Origin: Rubrobacteraceae bacterium
Lineage (GTDB): Bacteria; Actinomycetota; Rubrobacteria; Rubrobacterales; Rubrobacteraceae
Reading direction: 5' to 3'
Assembly (NCBI GenBank): GCA_041745215.1
Contig: JBGTJJ010000040.1
Location: 15,309 to 79,308, forward strand
DNA: 64,000 nt
Under the pieces are notes generated by a model. That model saw nothing but the letters and a program-made list of their open reading frames with translations. It ran no database searches and was not told the DNA's origin. The position numbers were made by a program, and so were the translations under genes. This document shows positions 5,950-39,793 of the stretch, in pieces. Positions within the stretch are counted from its first letter, which is position 1, and every line of letters begins with the position of its first letter.

Positions 5950-7437
5950 CTACATGTGGATGGCGTGTCCGTCGACGGCCATCGAAGCCTCGGCTATTAC
6001 TTCCGATAGGCTCGGGTGCGGGTGGATGGTCATCCCGATCTCCTGCGGCGTGCCCTCGACTAGCTTGGCGAAGACTCCCTCGGTGATGAGATCCGTCACC
6101 TTCGGGCCGATGGCGTGCATCCCGAGCAGCACGTCGGTCTCCGCGTCCGAGACGACCTTTACGAAGCCGTTCGGTTCGCCTTCGATCAGGGCTTTGCCGA
6201 TGGCCCGGAAGGGGAACTTGGATTCCTTGACCTCGTAGCCTTCTTCCTCGGCTTCGGCTTTCGTGAGGCCGAAGGATGCCACTTCGGGACGGCAGAAGGT
6301 GACGCGCGGGACGAGCGTCTGGTCCATCGGCATCGGGTTCTCGCCAGCCATGTGCTCCACGGCGATTATGCCCTCGTGGCCGGCGGCGTGGGCCAGCCAG
6401 TAGCCCCCGATCACATCTCCGGCGGCGTAGACGCCGTCCTCGCCGGTCTGTCCGAAGCCGTCCACCTGGATCTCACCCCGGTCGTTGAGCTCCACACCAA
6501 TTGCATCGAGGTTTAGCTCTTCGGTGACGGTCTTACGGCCCACGGCGACCAGGATGCACTCGGCCTCCAGGGTCTCGCCGCCTCCTTCACCCTCGCCGGT
6601 CGGGGCGTCACCGCCGCCGTAGCTGCCGCTCTCGCCCTCGGCCTCTTCCTTCTCTTCACCGGCGTCGGAGATGCTTATCTTTATGCCGTCGTCGGTCTTT
6701 TCGAGGCTTTTGGGGTCGGCCATGGTGCTGGTAAGGACCTTGATGTCGCGGCTGTCGAACTCCTTCTGAAGTTCGGTGGAGATCTCCGGGTCCTCCAGCG
6801 GCACAATACGGTCCAGCAACTCGACTACCGTAACGTCGGCGCCGAAGTCATTGAACATGCTGGCGAACTCGACGCCCACGGCCCCGGAGCCGAGGATTAT
6901 GATCGACTCTGGGATGCTATCCATCTCGGTGATCACGTAATCGCTCGATAGGACTTTATCTCCGTCGAAGTCCAGCCCCGGCAGGCTCTTGACAGCCGAG
7001 CCGGTGGAGATGAGCACGTTGTCCGCCTCCAACTCCTCCTCGCCGTCTGCGGTCTCCACTTTGATCTTCTTTGGCTCGACGAAGCTGCCGGTCCCGTTGT
7101 AGACCTGTACTTTGTTCTTCTTCATCAGGCCTGATACGCCCTTGCGAAGCTGGCCCATGACCTGGTCCTTGTGGCCGGTTACTTTGGAGTAGTCGAGCTC
7201 CACGTCGTTAGCCATGATTCCGAACTGCTCGGCGTGCTTGAAGTCGTTCATCAAGCCCGCGCTGTGCAAGAGCGCCTTGGTCGGGATGCAGCCGAGGTTG
7301 AGGCACGTGCCGCCGAGATATCCGCCTTCGCGCTTCTCGATCAGGGCTACCTTCATTCCCAACTGGCTCGCCCGGATCGCCGGGATGTACCCCCCGTTAC
7401 CGCCGCCGATTACTATGAGATCAAACTTATCCGCCAC
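5950..7437 (-). CDS. lpdA: dihydrolipoyl dehydrogenase (E3) with acidic/Gly-rich insertion
   Basis: FAD motif GGGNGGY, redox disulfide CLNLGCIPTK, NAD motif GSGAVGVE and C-terminal HPHPSLSE. Confidence 0.9.
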   Translation of the reverse strand: MADKFDLIVIGGGNGGYIPAIRASQLGMKVALIEKREGGYLGGTCLNLGCIPTKALLHSAGLMNDFKHAEQFGIMANDVELDYSKVTGHKDQVMGQLRKGVSGLMKKNKVQVYNGTGSFVEPKKIKVETADGEEELEADNVLISTGSAVKSLPGLDFDGDKVLSSDYVITEMDSIPESIIILGSGAVGVEFASMFNDFGADVTVVELLDRIVPLEDPEISTELQKEFDSRDIKVLTSTMADPKSLEKTDDGIKISISDAGEEKEEAEGESGSYGGGDAPTGEGEGGGETLEAECILVAVGRKTVTEELNLDAIGVELNDRGEIQVDGFGQTGEDGVYAAGDVIGGYWLAHAAGHEGIIAVEHMAGENPMPMDQTLVPRVTFCRPEVASFGLTKAEAEEEGYEVKESKFPFRAIGKALIEGEPNGFVKVVSDAETDVLLGMHAIGPKVTDLITEGVFAKLVEGTPQEIGMTIHPHPSLSEVIAEASMAVDGHAIHM

Positions 7438-7458: not shown

Positions 7459-8316
7459 CTACATCAATGATAACTGTTCGCCTTCCCAACTACCATTCTC
7501 TATCTGACACTCCGGACAGTAGTAGGTTGTCCTGCCGCCGACCTGCTCCTGCGACACCTTTCCTCCACACTCCGGACAGGGCTGTCCCCCTCGCTCGAAG
7601 ACCCGCAGATAGTGCTGGTGCTCTCCGGGGCGGCCCAGCAGGTCCCGATGAAACTGCACCGTCGTGCCGCGATGCTCTATACCGGCTTCGAGGTTCTCCC
7701 GGATCGCGGCGTGAAGCGCTCGGCACTCTTCCATAGAGAGCGTGCTGGCCTTGCGCCGGGGATGTATCCGGGCGTCGTAGAGGATCTCGTCGGCGTAGAT
7801 GTTTCCTATCCCGGCGACCAGTCTCTGCTCCATCAACAGAGGTTTTATCCGGGAACGTCGGCCGCCCAGATTCTGCCGCAGGTACTCGACGCTGAAGCCC
7901 TCTTCCAGAGGGTCCGGCCCGAGGTCCGAGAGCCCTTCTTCCAACTCGCCCGGCCCGAAGAGCCGGGCCCGTGTTAGCCGGAGCTCATCCCGCAGATATA
8001 GCCGCTTCTCATCGTCGAGATGGAAGATGAGCATTACGGCCGATTCCGGGACTTCGACCGGCGGCGCGAGCAGTAGCTGGCCCGCGAGCTTTAGCTGCAA
8101 GTCCAGAGAATACTCGCCCTCCAGCTCCAGGATGATGTGCTTCGCGCGGCGCCAGGCGCCGGTTATCTTCACTTCGTTAATATAACGGGCGAACTCCTCT
8201 ATCGAATGCTCTTCTACGAGTGCCGTGTCCGGAACCTCGGTCCGCAGTATCCGGGAGCCCACGACCAACTCGCGCAGGTCTTCCTTGATGGTTTCGGCCT
8301 CGGGGAGCTGTGGCAT
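7459..8316 (-). CDS. mutM: formamidopyrimidine-DNA glycosylase
   Basis: N-terminal MPQLPE with catalytic Pro2 and Glu. H2TH region present. C-terminal zinc finger CPECGG...CPECQ. Confidence 0.9.
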   Translation of the reverse strand: MPQLPEAETIKEDLRELVVGSRILRTEVPDTALVEEHSIEEFARYINEVKITGAWRRAKHIILELEGEYSLDLQLKLAGQLLLAPPVEVPESAVMLIFHLDDEKRLYLRDELRLTRARLFGPGELEEGLSDLGPDPLEEGFSVEYLRQNLGGRRSRIKPLLMEQRLVAGIGNIYADEILYDARIHPRRKASTLSMEECRALHAAIRENLEAGIEHRGTTVQFHRDLLGRPGEHQHYLRVFERGGQPCPECGGKVSQEQVGGRTTYYCPECQIENGSWEGEQLSLM

Positions 8317-18799: not shown

Positions 18800-20035
18800 C
18801 TAACCTGAATCCTGCGGCGACTCCCCGACGTAACGCGCCCTGGGGCGTATTAGAGTGTCGCTAGCGTACTGCTCGATGGCGTGGCCGATCCACCCAACAG
18901 TCCGCCCCAAAGCGAACAGCGCGAGCGCCCCGCCCGGCGGCAACTCCAGGGCGCGGGCCAGCGTTACAAGCCCCAGGTCCAAGGTCGGTCGTTCACCCAG
19001 CACCTCCAGAGCAGCCGCGCGCGTGGCGGCGGACACTTGCACGGCTGCAGATCCCGGACGGGCTGTTTCGGACAGCCGGATCAACTCCGCCCCTCTCGGG
19101 TCGCCGCCGGGATAGAGTTGATGCCCGAAACCCGGTATGCTCTCCCCGCGCCTCAGACGACCACCCACGATATCCTGCGCATCCCCGGAATCTTCGACCT
19201 CCTGTAGCAGTTTCTCCACGAGCTCGATCTGGCCGCCGTGCTTCACACCCTGCATCGCGGAGAGACCCGCCGTAACCGCTGCGTAAGGTGTCGCCCCGGA
19301 CGAGGCGACGCAGCGAACGGCGAAAGTCGAGACGGGCAACTCGTGGTCGGCGCAGATAATTAGCGCGGCATCTATGAGACCTCTGGAGTCCGGATCTTCC
19401 GGTACCCAACCGCGTTGCAGAGCACCCGCAATGCTCCCACCCTCGACCCCGCCGGAGAGCCTTCCGGCCATTAGACGCAGGATGCGCCCCCCGGTCTTCG
19501 CTACAGACTCGGAACGAAGATCGTAGGCGGCAGAATCCCCCATGGCCGCGAGCGACAGCAGACTTTGTAAGCCCTCCAGCGACGTTGGGCGAAGACCCGA
19601 TTCTTTCTCTGCTACAAAGTGTCCTGTCGAGATATCCGGTCCAAGGATCTCGGTAGTGTCAGCCGGAAGCTCGCCGGTCCAGATCAGGGCCGCCACCTCC
19701 TCGATGCTCCGGCTCCGGGAGAGATCCAACGCGTCCCGCCCCCGATAGTAGATGCGCCCGTCGGTGACCAGCGTGATCCCGGACTCTAACATCGGCGCGC
19801 CCCAACGCAACACACCCTCCAATGCACGTTCCGGGTCCCGCCGCCGCTCTTTCCGCTCCAGGAGCCTCCGCACGTCCTCACCGTGGTAACGCCTGCTCCG
19901 CCGGCTCCCCCCAACCTCCTCCGAACGCACCAGCCCCCGGCTCACGTAAGCGTACAAGGTCGGCAGGCTCACCCCCAACCCCTCCGCCGCCTCCCGCGCA
20001 CTCAAATAACGCTTCTCTTCCGGCACCCCAGACAC
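18800..20035 (-). CDS. HTH DNA-binding domain fused to a citrate-synthase-like domain
   Basis: The N-terminus YLSAREAAEGLGVSLPTLYAYVSRGLV resembles a MerR/excisionase-type HTH. The remainder matches the citrate synthase fold (GVKHGGQ, PGFGHQLYP, LGRTVGWIGHAIEQ). GTG start. Confidence 0.8.
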   Translation of the reverse strand: MSGVPEEKRYLSAREAAEGLGVSLPTLYAYVSRGLVRSEEVGGSRRSRRYHGEDVRRLLERKERRRDPERALEGVLRWGAPMLESGITLVTDGRIYYRGRDALDLSRSRSIEEVAALIWTGELPADTTEILGPDISTGHFVAEKESGLRPTSLEGLQSLLSLAAMGDSAAYDLRSESVAKTGGRILRLMAGRLSGGVEGGSIAGALQRGWVPEDPDSRGLIDAALIICADHELPVSTFAVRCVASSGATPYAAVTAGLSAMQGVKHGGQIELVEKLLQEVEDSGDAQDIVGGRLRRGESIPGFGHQLYPGGDPRGAELIRLSETARPGSAAVQVSAATRAAALEVLGERPTLDLGLVTLARALELPPGGALALFALGRTVGWIGHAIEQYASDTLIRPRARYVGESPQDSG

Positions 20036-20089
20036 GCCCTTACGCCCTTCTTCAAACCTTGTCCCGTATAGACAAACATCATAACTTAC

Positions 20090-20107
20090 ATTGATTTATA
20101 AATCAAT
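20090..20107. promoter_or_regulatory. perfect 18-bp palindrome ATTGATTTATAAATCAAT in a divergent promoter region (candidate operator)
   Basis: Read directly; the reverse complement is identical. A third ATTGAT half-site follows at 20108-20113. Sits in the AT-rich 115-bp gap between the HTH-CS-like gene and citrate synthase. Confidence 0.45.
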
Positions 20108-20150
20108 ATTGATAACTAACTTTCAACCAACTACGATACCTTTAGGACAG

Positions 20151-21326
20151 ATGACGAAAGGAAGACTGATGGGCGAAGACCTGACAACCTCCTTCGTACC
20201 GGGTTTGCAGGGCGTGGTTGCGGCCGAGACCCGGCTCAGCAAGGTAGACGGCGCCAACGGAGAGCTCGTGATCTCCGGTTTTCCCGTAGAAGAGTTGGCG
20301 ACCAGGGCGTCTTTCGAGGAATGCGTGTATTTGCTCTGGCGAGACGTCTTGCCCGGAGCCGAAGAGTTGAAAGACCTCCGCAGGTCTCTGGCCGGAAGCT
20401 CGGGGTTATCCGGCGCGACACTGGACCTTCTGAGGGCGGCGGCGAAAGAGGGCGTCCCGGTTATGGACGCGCTACGGATGGCGGCGGGAACCGTCGGCCT
20501 GGAGACATCCAATGGTCCTTCCGATGAAGCTGGATACGATCGGGACGCTATGATGCTGGTGGCGCTGACTCCCGAGATAGTGGCGGCCTACTGGCGAATG
20601 CTAAACGGAGAAAAGGTCGTCGAGCCGGACCCGGATCTGGGATACGCGGAGAACTACCTGTACATGCTGACTGGAAAGGTTCCCGACGCCGAGCGCGCCC
20701 GCGCCCTGGAGACCTACCTCAACACGGTCGTGGATCACGGCATGAACGCCTCGACCTTCGCGGCCCGCGTCATCATCTCCACCCGCTCCGACATCGTCTC
20801 TGCCCTCGTGGGGGCGATCGGCGCGCTGAAAGGCCCGCTACACGGTGGCGCTCCGGGACCGGCGCTGGACGTAGTATTCGAGATCGGGGGAAAAGACAGG
20901 GCCGAACCATATCTGAGGGAGAAGATCGAAAGCGGAGAAAGGTTAATGGGCTTCGGCCACCGCGTCTACAAAGTCCGCGACCCCAGGGCCGATGTGCTCG
21001 CATCGGCTGCGGAGAGGCTGTACGAAAACGCGGGCGACACGGAACTCTACGAGCTGGCGCTACACGTCGAGAAGACCGCCGTGGCACTGCTCGAAGAGTA
21101 CAAACCAGGCCGCAACCTGCAGACCAACGTAGAGTTCTACACCGCGCTGCTCCTGCACGGCGTCAGCCTCCCGACGGAACTCTTCACCCCCACCTTCGCC
21201 ATCGGCCGGACGGCGGGCTGGACGGCGCACTGTATAGAGCAACGGGAACTCGACCGGATCATCCGCCCGGAGTCAGCCTACGTCGGCCCTGAGAACCGGG
21301 GTTGGGTTTCTCTAGAAGAAAGATAA
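20151..21326 (+). CDS. citrate synthase (short, type I/archaeal-like)
   Basis: Motifs GPLHGGAPG, MGFGHRVYK and GRTAGWTAHCIEQ. Start set at the ATG at 20151; the ATG at 20169 is an alternative, and the track's TTG at 20091 lies inside the operator region. Confidence 0.9.
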   Translation: MTKGRLMGEDLTTSFVPGLQGVVAAETRLSKVDGANGELVISGFPVEELATRASFEECVYLLWRDVLPGAEELKDLRRSLAGSSGLSGATLDLLRAAAKEGVPVMDALRMAAGTVGLETSNGPSDEAGYDRDAMMLVALTPEIVAAYWRMLNGEKVVEPDPDLGYAENYLYMLTGKVPDAERARALETYLNTVVDHGMNASTFAARVIISTRSDIVSALVGAIGALKGPLHGGAPGPALDVVFEIGGKDRAEPYLREKIESGERLMGFGHRVYKVRDPRADVLASAAERLYENAGDTELYELALHVEKTAVALLEEYKPGRNLQTNVEFYTALLLHGVSLPTELFTPTFAIGRTAGWTAHCIEQRELDRIIRPESAYVGPENRGWVSLEER

Positions 21327-21351: not shown

Positions 21352-21379
21352 GAAGTCGATAAATCAGAACGTCGACTTC
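21352..21379 (+). terminator. hairpin 25 nt after the citrate synthase stop (GAAGTCGA-N12-TCGACTTC)
   Basis: Perfect 8-bp inverted repeat read in the sequence. There is no U-tract, so terminator function is uncertain. Confidence 0.3.
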
Positions 21380-21414
21380 ACCTCCTATCGACGAGCTCGT
21401 TCTCACGATGGCGG

Positions 21415-21615
21415 TTAATTTCTTTGGTCTTGCCTATTGGTCTCGCTGAACAGTGTTTTGAACAAGTCTTTAAAGGTTTTCGCTTCTTCCGCTTCGTGCT
21501 GCTTACCATTAGACGCTTCTTCACACGTGATGAACAAGCTTTTGGAAGATCTGCCGACTAAGTAAGTAGTGCTACCCTCGAAAGTTCCACTGACCACTCC
21601 ACCCAACAAGGGCAC
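21415..21615 (-). CDS. hypothetical small protein (AT-rich island)
   Basis: 66-aa ORF with a GTG start and no recognisable family. Could be a gene fragment. Confidence 0.25.
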   Translation of the reverse strand: MPLLGGVVSGTFEGSTTYLVGRSSKSLFITCEEASNGKQHEAEEAKTFKDLFKTLFSETNRQDQRN

Positions 21616-21723
21616 GGCTTTGTAATGTCAAATATATAGTGACATAGTAAGCTAACGTGCTGTAGTTACTGTGCCAGTCGAACGCAGGTTACTGCTTGGC
21701 CCAGTACACTCTATCTGGTCGCT

Positions 21724-21978
21724 TTACTCTTTTGTTAAGTGCTTTGGCAGCACGGAGTAGAATGCATTGTCTCCGTCTGGTTGCACTTGGATGTAGACTT
21801 CGTTTGCGTCTGGCCCGTTAATCGGCGTAGCTGCACCTATCACTGTACCGCTCTTGCCAGCGATGCCCTTTTCTTTGTTCTCTTGCGAATCCGTGATTGA
21901 CACCCTCAACCCCTCAAGCAATGCCCCAAGTCCTACAGACGGCACAATCGTTACTCCCTTCCATCCCACTTGACCCAA
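21724..21978 (-). CDS. hypothetical small protein, SH3-like/DUF4926-Imm31-like pattern
   Basis: 84-aa ORF with a TTG start. The pattern GLRVSI...GIAGKSGTVIG...EVYIQV...FYSVLPKHL resembles small beta-barrel immunity or antitoxin-type domains. The similarity is weak. Confidence 0.4.
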   Translation of the reverse strand: MGQVGWKGVTIVPSVGLGALLEGLRVSITDSQENKEKGIAGKSGTVIGAATPINGPDANEVYIQVQPDGDNAFYSVLPKHLTKE

Positions 21979-22095
21979 GCATCGTACAGTATTTCTATTG
22001 TACCCTGTTGGAAAAATAACTGTGGTATAAATCTCGGCATGGCGTACAATTAGCTTTAATCGTGTCGCTCCGTGGGAACATTAATGAGATAGATT

Positions 22096-22665
22096 ATGCA
22101 CTGGTTCTCTAGCGATGTGAGAATTATGGCTGTCGTTATCGTTTCTCTGCTGTTGTTGAAGTTCGTCCTCAACTTAGCTCGTTTCGTACGAATGAAACGC
22201 TACCTAGAAAAGTATAAGAAATGGCACTCGACGAGGGACGAGAAATTCCTGGAGTCGAAATCGCAAGTGGTCAGGTTGGTAAGGGACGCTGGTGTAAGCG
22301 ACCAACGCATTAGTGTGAGTGAACATGTGGGCTACGGAAATCTGCGAGTGACCGAAGCGTCGGTAATGGACAACTTCCCGCACCTCAGCCAAGATATGTC
22401 TAGTGCCGCACAGCGGCTTATGCGCGAAGCCATAGGAACCTACCGAGCAAGGATGCGGGAAACATTTAACCCCTTGTATTGGATTGAATATCTCGTTTAC
22501 TTACCGAGGGAAGTGCTTGATTACTTAGGAGTGCCAGCCGAAAGCATCTTCGTTAAGGTATTGCAGATTGTATGGTGGGCAATAGGGACAATACTTAGCC
22601 TATTGTATGTCGTGTACAGACCAGAGATAAGAGTACTTATCGAGCGCTGGATTACATCGGGTTGA
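22096..22665 (+). CDS. hypothetical membrane protein (AT-rich island)
   Basis: 189-aa ATG ORF with an N-terminal TM (IMAVVIVSLLLLKFVLNL) and a C-terminal TM (VLQIVWWAIGTILSLLYVV). An extended -10-like TGGTATAAA lies upstream. No family recognised. Confidence 0.55.
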   Translation: MHWFSSDVRIMAVVIVSLLLLKFVLNLARFVRMKRYLEKYKKWHSTRDEKFLESKSQVVRLVRDAGVSDQRISVSEHVGYGNLRVTEASVMDNFPHLSQDMSSAAQRLMREAIGTYRARMRETFNPLYWIEYLVYLPREVLDYLGVPAESIFVKVLQIVWWAIGTILSLLYVVYRPEIRVLIERWITSG

Positions 22666-22843
22666 GTTCGATATATTCGAAGGGGTGTCTTAAATCTGCT
22701 CTAGAGCAAGTCGGGAAACTGTACAGTATTGGTAGAGAGAAGAAAGCGGAGCAGTTAAAGGATAAGTTGAACACGTTACAGGAGCTGGTGAAAAGAGGGT
22801 GATTTGTTTGTAAGAGTACAGCAAATCGAGTGCTGTACGGGCA

Positions 22844-22875
22844 TAAAAAACGGCCCCTGGCAAAAACCAGGAGCC
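22844..22875 (-). terminator. intrinsic terminator (minus sense): GGCUCCUGG-UUUUUG-CCAGGGGCC followed by GUUUUUU
   Basis: 9-bp GC-rich stem (one G-U) with a 6-nt loop and a U6 tract, read on the minus strand. Confidence 0.6.
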
Positions 22876-23102
22876 GTACCTTCTGAGTGTTACGCAGGTA
22901 TCTGGTATTTCAGCACGCCGCCTTCAACTACCGAAGAGGCGGTACAGGAAATAACCCGGTACTCCGCAAGGGTTTTGGCGGGACTAGGTCAGAGCCACCT
23001 CTTCCAGAAGATACCCACGTCTACTACTCGGTGCGTCGATCTGGATCACCTCCTCTCCGTGCCGTCAACTAGCGGAGATTCTACTATCCCTAAATATCTC
23101 CG
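22845..23102. ncRNA. candidate structured RNA containing 16S rRNA helix-45 and anti-SD-tail sequences (strand unresolved)
   Basis: No credible ORF. On the + strand: CTGGATCACCTCCT at 23041-23054, GGTGCG at 23030-23035 and AGCCGTACC at 22872-22880. Nested long-range helices 22885-22888/23026-23029 and 22892-22902/23010-23020. Hairpins or terminators at both ends. Confidence 0.4.
23073..23102. terminator. hairpin CGGAGAT-N16-ATCTCCG, 20 nt downstream of the cinA stop
   Basis: 7-bp inverted repeat read in the sequence. A U-rich run follows in the + sense (UAUUUUCAAGAUUUAUUUUU). Possibly a bidirectional terminator. Confidence 0.35.
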
Positions 23103-23121: not shown

Positions 23122-24405
23122 TTATTTTTCTTCCAACCGCCGCCGCAGAATATCGAAGGCCCGATTCGCGCTCCGCTCCCGGATCGCCTCCCGCGAACGA
23201 CGCCAGGCCGAGAGGTCCAACTCCTCCGCAAATGTCTCTTTTTCGTCGGAGACCCCGATCCAGACGAGACCTACCGGCTTCTCTTCCGTCCCGCCATCCG
23301 GCCCGGCGACCCCCGTAACGGAGAGCCCGTAATCCGAACCGGCTACCTCCCGCGCTCCCTCCGCCATCTCACGGGCGACGGCCTCGCTCACGGCCCCATG
23401 CTCCATCAGGGTCTCGCGCTTTACTCCGAGCAGGCGCTCTTTGGCGTCGTTTGAGTAGGTGACGAGGCCTTCCTGAAAATACGCCGAAGAACCGGCGCTG
23501 TCAGTGAGGCGTTTGGCGAGCAAGCCTCCGGTGCAACTCTCGGCGAGGGCCAGCGTGGTGCCGCGCTCTTCGAGCAAGCGTCCAACGGCGCTCTCAAGGG
23601 TCTCTTCGTCTTCGCCGAAGTAGTAGTCGCCGAGCCGGGAGAGTATCTCCTGGGCTACGGGCTCTATCTTTTCTTCGGCTTCTTCGGGGGTGGCGGCGCG
23701 GCTGGTGATGCGGAGGCGGACCTTGCCCTGACCGGCGAGCGGGGCTACCGTCGGGTCTTCGGCGTCGAGCAAGTCCTGGACTTTCTCCGCGAGCGCGGAT
23801 TCGCCCATTCCGGAGAACCAGAGAGTTTTGGAGACGATGGAGCCGTCGCTGCGTTCCCGAACCAGCGGGGCGAGAGTCTCGCCGAACATACCCTTCATCT
23901 CCCCCGGCACGCCGGGGAGTGTGGCGAAAAGCGTCCCGTCGATTTCGAGGAGCGCGCCCATCGCCGTGCCTAGGGGGTTGGGGATCAGGGTGGTCCCCTC
24001 CGGGAACAGGGCCTGCTTGTAGTTGGATGGCGTCGGCTTGCGACCGAAGCGGGCGAACATGTCTTCGACGTGCCGCCGGGCCTCCTCGTACTCGACCATC
24101 TCCCGGCCCGACAATAGCGCCAGGCACTCGTTCGTCAGGTCGTCGGATGTAGGGCCGAGTCCACCGGTGGTAATTACCAGGTCGGAACGCGCGGCGGCGT
24201 CACGCATCGCGCCGACTACCCGGTTCCGGTTGTCTCCAACGGTGGTGTGCCGGTAGATGCCGACGCCGAGCTCCGCGAGGTGGGTGCTGAGCCAGGCCGT
24301 GTTGGTGTCCACCAGCGCCCCGAGCAGCATCTCGGTGCCGATAGTAATGATCTCCGCTCTCTCGATGTTACGTTCTTCGGATTTCCGTTCGTGGTTTTTT
24401 TGCAT
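23122..24405 (-). CDS. cinA: competence/damage-inducible protein CinA (MoCF-like N-domain plus nicotinamide-nucleotide amidase C-domain)
   Basis: N-terminal [13 protein letters not shown]...[13 protein letters not shown] and C-terminal ESCTGGLLA...GPDGG. Confidence 0.9.
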
Positions 24406-39720: not shown

Positions 39721-39793
39721 GGGCCGCTAGCTCAATTGGCAGAGCAAAAGACTCTTAATCTTTAGGTTCCAGGTTCGAGTCCTGGGCGGCTCA
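39721..39793 (+). tRNA. tRNA-Lys (anticodon CUU)
   Basis: Hand-folded 73-nt cloverleaf: acceptor GGGCCGC/GCGGCUC, D arm GCUC-AAUUGGCA-GAGC, anticodon arm AAAGA-CUCUUAA-UCUUU, T arm CCAGG-UUCGAGU-CCUGG, discriminator A. CCA is not encoded. Confidence 0.9.

Follow-up and report, generated by a model that had tools for sequence, protein, structure and literature searches.

A gene for a small structured RNA lies on the minus strand of a 64,000-nucleotide (nt) stretch of DNA from a Rubrobacteraceae bacterium (assembly GCA_041745215.1, contig JBGTJJ010000040.1, positions 15,309 to 79,308). This whole stretch was analyzed and is referred to as the window. The RNA gene comes directly after cinA, which is encoded on the minus strand at 23122-24405, ends at 23122 and specifies 427 amino acids (aa). 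CinA relatives 80-90% identical to this protein are present in Rubrobacteraceae metagenome-assembled genomes. Near its 5′ end the RNA carries an extended complement to the single-stranded 3′ tail of 16S ribosomal RNA (rRNA). The original prediction for this locus had noticed a match to the 16S 3′ terminus and two blocks resembling the strands of 16S helix 45, and had proposed a structured non-coding element whose strand was left undecided.

The RNA was compared across 15 related Rubrobacteraceae loci. Five came from a genome scan, one (L018) from a metagenome and the others (L022-L030) through further CinA homologues. L030 has the same RNA as L029, leaving 14 distinct RNA sequences. The consensus structure was scored on an alignment of these 14 (794 pair cells). 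The relatives were reached through CinA or a DNA pattern, and the CinA matches listed (at least 120) were all at least 77% identical. The pattern used on the metagenome was GGTATCTTCTGG-N62-92-GGCGTGCTGA, which gave nine matches comprising one true homologue (L018) and eight chance matches. It was too strict, since several homologues read GGCGGACGTGCT. The RNA was matched by nhmmer in 15/15 loci with E values of 1e-55 to 1e-84, and by both blastn and nhmmer in all five genome-scan loci. As far as sampled, it appears specific to the Rubrobacteraceae. The RNA of the consensus model has three parts: the 5′ arm (about 40 nt), a conserved body made of several helices (P1, P2, P3) and a junction, and an intrinsic terminator. 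The features of the gene in the window are listed from 5′ to 3′.

23106 to 23078, minus strand: predicted sigma-70-type promoter found by consensus scan, with -35 TTGCCG (23106-23101), a 17-nt spacer and -10 TAGAAT (23083-23078).
23070 to 22845, minus strand: predicted transcript of about 226 nt, with a putative 5′ end near A23070 (AGUUGAC...) and a putative 3′ end in the U-tract.
23070-23030, minus strand: 5′ arm, holding GGAGAGGAGGUGAUCCAG (23058-23041).
23041-23058, minus strand: 16S-tail complement GGAGAGGAGGUGAUCCAG, covering +13 to +30 of the predicted transcript.
23030-23050, minus strand: small 5′ hairpin, GGUG (23050-23047) with CACC (23033-23030), plus UC/GA; helix 1, 100% of cells paired.
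22984-23040, minus strand: possible small open reading frame (ORF) of 18 codons (AUC/AUA ... UAG), starting 8 nt after AGGAGG.
23009-23029, minus strand: 5′ strand of P1, GAGU (23029-23026) and CGUGGGUAUCU (23019-23009).
22995-23004, minus strand: 5′ strand of P2, GAAGAGGUGG; helix 5, 10 pairs, 100% paired.
22952-22991, minus strand: P3, UGACCU (22991-22986) with GGGUUA (22957-22952); helix 6, 96% paired.
22933-22942, minus strand: 3′ strand of P2, CCGCCUCUUC; its first six bases could instead pair with AGGCGG (22923-22918).
22904-22932, minus strand: conserved junction, GGUAGUUGAAGGCGG(A)CGUGCUGA, near-invariant.
22885-22903, minus strand: 3′ strand of P1, AGAUACCUGCG (22903-22893) and ACUC (22888-22885).
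22880-22845, minus strand: predicted intrinsic terminator found by terminator scan, conserved, with its stem at 22877-22850 and its U-tract at 22850-22845.

The strand is settled as minus by the promoter, the terminator and the base pairing. Canonical pairs fill 786 of the 794 cells (99%) in the minus sense and 656 (83%) in the plus sense; the plus sense has fewer because 134 cells are G-U, which become C.A on the other strand. CTTG of the -35 element and TAGTAnAnT of the -10 element were invariant in the 14 sequences, including L007 and L029. Where another gene splits the RNA from cinA (L007, L029 and L030) the promoter is displaced together with the RNA. The predicted 5′ end sits 8 nt past the -10 element. 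Conservation starts abruptly at AGTTGA and stops at the U-tract. The minus-sense terminator noticed earlier was found again by the scan and is conserved. Its 5′ arm includes GGUACGGCU (22880-22872), the complement of plus-strand AGCCGTACC. The upper stem shows compensatory changes, with CG in seven sequences and UA in seven (helices 10 and 11). The lower 5′ arm, GUACGGC, is invariant except for an A to G change in L029, and the 3′ arm shows C to U changes. The hairpin at 23073-23102, thought to bracket the element on its other side, was not conserved. It falls within the promoter of the minus-strand gene and coincides with the spacer between -35 and -10.

A functional plus strand had also been proposed, as a mimic of the 16S 3′ minor domain acting as a decoy for factors that bind or process the 16S 3′ end, of which Era, KsgA and RbfA would be examples. 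A decaying rrn fragment is a further plus-sense possibility. One feature does read like sense 16S. In 13 of the 14 sequences the helix-45-like stem has a G.U pair when read in the plus sense, where the minus sense gives a C.A mismatch. In L029 both stem bases are changed to give U.G, and the stem pairs in the minus sense. The 134 G-U cells are lost to C.A mismatches when the plus strand is read, and the conserved promoter and terminator point the other way. The Rfam small-subunit rRNA model gave no match to the element at the gathering threshold or at E<=10, and no other rRNA or spacer sequence was detected nearby with Rfam in the 64-kb window, so the rrn fragment was not borne out. In the 14 sequences the element is also subject to purifying selection. 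A plus-strand function of either kind has very little to recommend it.

The 16S-tail complement is the most distinctive part of the RNA. Positions 23054-23041 (14 nt) complement CUGGAUCACCUCCU exactly, and the corresponding CTGGATCACCTCCT at 23041-23054 on the plus strand was the sole match in the window with fewer than two mismatches, both strands considered. The match first reported there is therefore present and unique. Four nt upstream of it lengthen the pairing to ...UUUCU-3′, two of these pairs being G.U. GGAGAGGAGGUGAUCCAG spans the complement of the whole single-stranded 16S 3′ tail (CUGGAUCACCUCCUUUCU-3′), about 18 base pairs (bp). Among 20,648 prokaryotic taxa the 13-base 16S tail GAUCACCUCCUU(A) shows high conservation; in B. 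subtilis it reads GAUCACCUCCUUUCU (PMC6107228). The tail used here was this consensus (PMC6107228) extended by actinobacterial 16S bases, and not the organism's own sequence. When a 22-nt scanning window was slid along both strands of the 64 kb against the 18-nt tail, the block gave a predicted duplex energy of -34.1 kcal/mol compared to -23.6 kcal/mol for the next best site (mean -7.1, standard deviation 3.1). It is the strongest 16S-tail complement in the window, in keeping with the earlier argument that the match exceeds chance. Long Shine-Dalgarno (SD) sequences do not seem habitual in this genome, because GGAGGTGA occurs only twice in the window. The second copy is at 21378-21389 on the minus strand, at the far edge of a low-GC island described below, and lies within a 12-nt near-repeat of the block (TCACCTCCTATC compared to TCACCTCCTCTC) that is probably due to chance.

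In the relatives GGUGAUCCAGAU was invariant in 14/14 sequences, and the 16S-like block noticed originally is thus conserved in related genomes. Elsewhere in the block just two kinds of change were seen, both compatible with pairing to 16S. GAGAGG is replaced by GAAAGG in L007, L022 and L023, turning a G.U opposite 16S UUU into A-U, and AGGAGG is replaced by AGGGGG in L022 and L023, turning an A-U into G.U. The L007 block, GAAAGGAGGUGAUCCAG, is a perfect 17-nt Watson-Crick complement; that of the window has 14 Watson-Crick pairs and four more pairs including two G.U. The mean unpaired probability of the block is about 0.55, compared to about 0.36 for the whole RNA.

The consensus fold was strongly conserved. 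In total 99% of cells were paired, compared to 41-50% when the 3′ partners were slid by 1-3 columns. The observed covariation score was reached by 0/500 shuffles, a count that is not a probability as the sequences are related. The individual compensatory pairs, found in P2 and the terminator, are firmer structural evidence. P2 pair 118:192 is A-U in eight sequences, G-C in four and G-U in two. P1 (helices 3 and 4) has 11 + 3 pairs, 95-100% paired, and five of its pairs vary one-sidedly via G-U. The two rod helices proposed earlier, 22885-22888/23026-23029 and 22892-22902/23010-23020, correspond to this element and are kept in all 14 distinct homologues. The hairpin proposed at 22918-22942 fared less well. 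Its arms (CCGCCU/AGGCGG) are 100% pairable and it can form in all sequences, but it lacks independent covariation and competes with the covariation-supported P2 helix 23004-22995/22942-22933. The apical region enclosed by P3 is variable, and subclades differ there by indels of 1-11 nt. The small 5′ hairpin covers the 3′ half of the 16S-tail complement and ties it to CGCACC (23035-23030). Columns 87 and 85 there vary between C and U opposite G, which fits the 5′ hairpin and pairing with 16S GGUGCG alike. CGUGCU in the junction (22917-22912) could pair with GGCACG in the 5′ arm (23063-23058), being 96% pairable with no two-sided changes. The alternative helices as a set (GGCACG/CGUGCU, the helix-45-like stem CGCACC/GGUACG, and CCGCCU/AGGCGG) were 80-100% pairable, likewise with no two-sided changes.

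The RNA was found in 15/15 loci, always near the cinA 3′ end. It lies directly after cinA, or 1.2-1.6 kb off past an inserted opposite-strand gene (L007, L029 and L030). Identity to the window is 79-97% for the RNA and 76-86% for cinA DNA; at the sequence level the RNA thus appears usually better conserved than cinA. The two rankings do not agree. In L004 and L018 cinA is closest to the window (82-86% nucleotide identity) yet the RNA is 80-81% identical, and in L005, L006 and L024 cinA is 78-79% identical yet the RNA reaches 96-97%. This mismatch is suggestive of recombination or exchange there. The next gene downstream runs convergently to the RNA in the window, L007, L023 and L027; in L006/L024, L022 and L025 it has the same orientation as the RNA but is a different gene. 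Since the downstream gene and its orientation vary, the RNA is a stand-alone gene product. A cis-regulatory leader or riboswitch was rejected because no gene constantly follows it in the same orientation. None of the fetched contigs had a gene called over the element, in agreement with the earlier statement that no credible ORF covers it. Long plus-strand ORFs were ruled out by apical-region indels of 1, 2 and 11 nt.

Database searches gave no known family. With Rfam 15 at the gathering threshold the sole match in the 64-kb window was one transfer RNA (tRNA) gene, at 39721-39793 on the plus strand. At E<=10 the element returned terminator-like noise alone (e.g., PyrR, 22 bits with the cut-off at 54), and no match was found at the gathering threshold in 13 homologous loci. 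ARAGORN predicted no tRNA or transfer-messenger RNA in the element. The element had no blastn match in phage and plasmid collections. The 14-sequence alignment and structure model define a family absent from Rfam. It had been said that no RNA of this design was described. This holds for Rfam families, but not for two alpha-proteobacterial small messenger RNAs (mRNAs), rreB and rreR, which carry the same kind of 16S-tail complement of 16-17 nt and bind 30S (Hahn et al., RNA Biol 2017; PMC5711450).

In rreB/rreR the complement ends on the first base of the GUG start codon, which opens an ORF of 14 or 18 codons (PMC5711450). The rreB complement is 17 nt long, with its first five bases free and the remainder in a hairpin; rreB co-sediments with 30S and is weakly translated (PMC5711450). 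The present RNA resembles them in several ways. It forms its own short transcription unit, about 226 nt long as against 165 nt, with a promoter of RpoD type and a terminator that are both predicted here. The 16-17-nt complement is 5′-proximal and shares the core AGGAGGUGAUCCAG, and the perfect complement of L007 is 17 nt, as in rreB. Both have a seed and hairpin design, where the complement is free for its first few bases only and a small hairpin, itself conserved, takes up the rest. Downstream of the complement comes a short open frame (14-18 codons), and conservation is at the family level. The differences are equally clear. The hosts belong to different phyla and the likeness is not established as homology. 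Here GAU stands at the position of GUG, and the sole frame opens with AUC/AUA. Here there is also a large conserved multi-helix body, which the frame overlaps, and flanking blocks that look like antisense helix 45. Binding to 30S was demonstrated for rreB, and here we infer it by analogy. The RNA is rre-like but without the GUG/AUG start fused to the complement that defines that family.

We lean, a little beyond an even chance, toward a small RNA that docks on 30S subunits via the 16S tail. This agrees with the earlier minus-sense proposal of an extreme SD-like RNA with extended complementarity to the 16S 3′ end, for which the promoter, the terminator, the 134 G-U cells and the conservation in 14 sequences speak. 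The exposed, purine-rich start of the block would be the seed for a duplex with the anti-SD tail of free 30S subunits. This duplex would then zip through the GGUG/CACC hairpin to about 18 bp. A helix of about 18 bp far exceeds any working SD helix. The subunit would be held docked, on standby, with little or no translation, because no AUG, GUG or UUG lies at P-site distance and the stable P1 stands where the mRNA channel would be. The RNA's action at the ribosome would consist in covering the mRNA-docking tail, in carrying the folded body to the 30S platform, or in both. Candidate outcomes are capping of the anti-SD tail, delivery of the body to the 30S platform, stabilization against 5′ decay, and low-level production of a peptide.

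Several points weigh against docking of this kind. The last three bases of the 16S tail, and helix 45, are those of actinobacterial 16S in general and not of this organism's own rRNA. Pairing with 16S was tested by two substitution types only. The 18-codon frame, its length (18-19 codons) and its stop are kept in 14/14 sequences, and its variable columns fall at codon positions 3/2/1 in the ratio 9/4/3, an excess at the third position. Overproduction of rreB by 20-fold had no effect on growth (PMC5711450). Simple titration of ribosomes may not be the function, since that overproduction was harmless to growth.

The frame raises the alternative of a small mRNA of the rre type, in which the extended SD recruits 30S to the frame at 23040-22984, translation begins at a near-cognate AUC/AUA and the peptide is the product. 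The encoded pattern is xDA[PS]SS..R[GR]YLL[EG][EG]VAL[TI]. Apart from the conservation already given, both indels within the frame are of +3, and the spacing is similar, with AUC/AUA placed 8 nt past AGGAGG compared to 7 nt for the GUG of rreB/rreR; rreR likewise has 18 codons. None of the 14 sequences has an AUG, GUG or UUG at a usable distance (5-10 nt), however. The triplet at the rre GUG position is GAU in 14/14, and the sole conserved frame opens one base later. An open stretch of 18 codons has a chance expectation of about 40%, and the +3 indels lie within an (AGU)n repeat that itself slips by threes. The third-position changes (CGU to CGC, GGG to AGG) are neutral U-G/C-G and G-U/A-U exchanges in P1, and the changes at the codon positions of the frame are neutral for P1 and P2 alike. 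UAU CUU CUG shows no synonymous change. AGU, AGA, CGU, UAU and CUU are probably rare codons at 62% G+C, by judgement and not by computation, and conservation past the stop is no lower than within the frame. A peptide-coding role is therefore considered unlikely. Two other starts were rejected. L022 and L023 have a 1-nt insertion that breaks the frame from the 5′ UUG (UUG ACG GCA ...). For the GUG within GGAGGUGAUCC, the SD core abuts the start and the upstream GGAG is not conserved.

The absence of a start codon recalls STAB-SD, an SD-like element of about 9 nt in the leaders of long mRNAs (B. thuringiensis cry3A) that is thought to hold 30S and protect the RNA. Both are SD-like sequences near a 5′ end that are not used for initiation, and in the present RNA no AUG, GUG or UUG follows within 5-10 nt. 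The GAAAGG[A/G]GG form in L007, L022 and L023 is presumably close to the STAB-SD sequence. The element differs in that an 18-nt complement is carried on a stand-alone structured small RNA. A related alternative is an ordinary trans-acting small RNA, whose purine-rich 5′ arm would serve as a seed for C/U-rich mRNA sites or as a STAB-SD-like stabilizer against 5′-exonuclease, with a body of unrelated function. The layout of a single-stranded 5′ seed, a structured body and a terminator is consistent with this, as is an SD-like block near the 5′ end without a start codon as in STAB-SD leaders, and the body is conserved as much as the block. An exact tail complement of 14-18 nt, including GAUCCAG past any SD core, exceeds what a seed or stabilizer needs, and the whole tail complement is invariant. 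Abundant 16S tails would also be met first. The stabilizer idea is in any case a sub-case of ribosome docking and not a true alternative. Taken as a whole, the trans-acting explanation appears decidedly unlikely.

The remaining similarity to 16S concerns helix 45. Both blocks reported earlier, GGTGCG at 23030-23035 and AGCCGTACC at 22872-22880, are present. In the minus sense the order is the tail complement, AUCGA, CGCACC, the P1 body, AGAA and GGUACGGCU. The antisense of ...AGCCGUACC-GGAA-GGUGCG-G-CUGGAUCACCUCCUUUCU runs in the same order, except that here a folded body takes the place of the complement of the GGAA loop. In mononucleotide shuffles the 9-mer had p ~0.016 and CGCACC within 14 nt had p ~0.002, values that depend on a general 16S 3′ end, not the organism's own, and on blocks chosen post hoc. 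On these values the resemblance is probably more than chance. It is real in the sequence as originally proposed, but symmetric between the strands. Descent of the blocks from an antisense copy of the rrs 3′ end would fit, because the C.A of the stem is the antisense of the G.U of helix 45. Both blocks have internal roles as well, in the 5′ hairpin and in the terminator stem (100% paired).

A further explanation takes these blocks as an antisense clamp on the 16S 3′ minor domain, with CGCACC (23035-23030) and GGUACGGCU (22880-22872) pairing the 3′ and 5′ strands of helix 45, respectively. P1 would juxtapose the two blocks, and helix 45 would be held open in immature or stored 30S with its GGAA loop, the target of KsgA, unpaired. 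The collinearity of three blocks with the antisense of the 16S 3′ end and the shuffle values argue for a clamp. So do the changes within the blocks (C to U at columns 85 and 87, A to G at column 253), which keep 16S pairing via G.U, and the invariant lower 5′ arm of the terminator opposite a 3′ arm that varies. Against it, the 16S reference was a general one and the blocks were picked after the data were seen, and the internal roles of both blocks are simpler. Changes at the block edges break 16S pairing (C83 to A in four sequences, U258 to C in six). Helix 45 is very stable and buried in mature 30S. The antisense of a hairpin is also a hairpin, so the blocks look equally like a relic of the antisense rrs 3′ end. 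Given the internal roles and the edge variation the clamp is a minority reading, with a slim chance of being correct.

Docking on the 16S tail may be extended to a broader role, in which the RNA is to the ribosome what 6S RNA is to RNA polymerase. Abundant, structured and untranslated, it would cap the anti-SD tail, might also clamp the two helix 45 strands in 30S particles that are immature or stored, and would regulate or protect translation. Such a role is doubtful but worth entertaining. 6S RNA mimics an open promoter bound by RNA polymerase. The concept is alike, as a structured RNA would mimic the nucleic-acid ligand of a core machine, but the target here would be 30S, through a super-strong SD, and not RNA polymerase. 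The element itself was rejected as a 6S RNA. It had no RF00013 match (E<=10 on the element, gathering threshold in 13 loci), and its fold is a free 5′ arm of about 40 nt with a branched body and not a rod with a central bubble. RMF and the hibernation factors would share the same 30S site, the 16S 3′ tail, and like them the RNA would block SD-dependent mRNA binding. Those factors are proteins and the link is purely conceptual.

To our knowledge, alpha-proteobacteria, with rreB/rreR, were until now the sole source of RNAs that complement the 16S 3′ tail over its full length. That such a complement recurs in a distant phylum suggests that docking on the anti-SD tail is a recurrent strategy under selection and not a curiosity. 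Here it is found on a larger, strongly conserved folded RNA, with no usable start codon and usually better conservation than the neighbouring protein gene. The RNA may be a cleaner test case than rreB for separating ribosome function from peptide coding. It is also a well-delimited candidate for a regulatory RNA associated with the ribosome, from a soil lineage that is abundant and tolerant of stress. Were the comparison with 6S RNA to hold, it would represent RNA-based silencing or chaperoning of the 16S 3′ end in desiccation-tolerant soil actinobacteria. We know of such silencing or chaperoning so far only for proteins (RMF, HPF, Era and KsgA).

A low-GC island at 21400-22800 in the window lies between a citrate synthase gene and the RNA terminator. 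Its G+C content is 46-49%, compared to about 62% around it. It holds four ORFs with no assigned function, two on the plus strand (22096-22665, 189 aa, membrane-like; 22662-22802, 46 aa) and two on the minus strand (21724-21978, 84 aa; 21415-21615, 66 aa). Pfam and PADLOC scans of these ORFs gave nothing over threshold; the 66-aa ORF had a weak PADLOC match to PDC-S29 (E 2e-5). Repeats around the island were at chance level only (12-18 nt). The relatives hold different genes or none at this position, and the slot after the RNA 3′ end therefore seems to carry variable cargo. In L025 the last ~70 nt of the RNA, including the terminator, are present as a tandem duplicate together with ~35 nt of downstream sequence (6611-6694), and a third similar terminator follows an inserted adh_short gene (7492-7532). 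Cassette insertion or recombination at the RNA 3′ end would fit this pattern. Beyond the island, 18800-21326 in the window contains a divergent pair of citrate-synthase-family genes, an arrangement kept in relatives. One of the pair, at 18800-20035 on the minus strand, has an N-terminal HTH_17/MerR-type domain.

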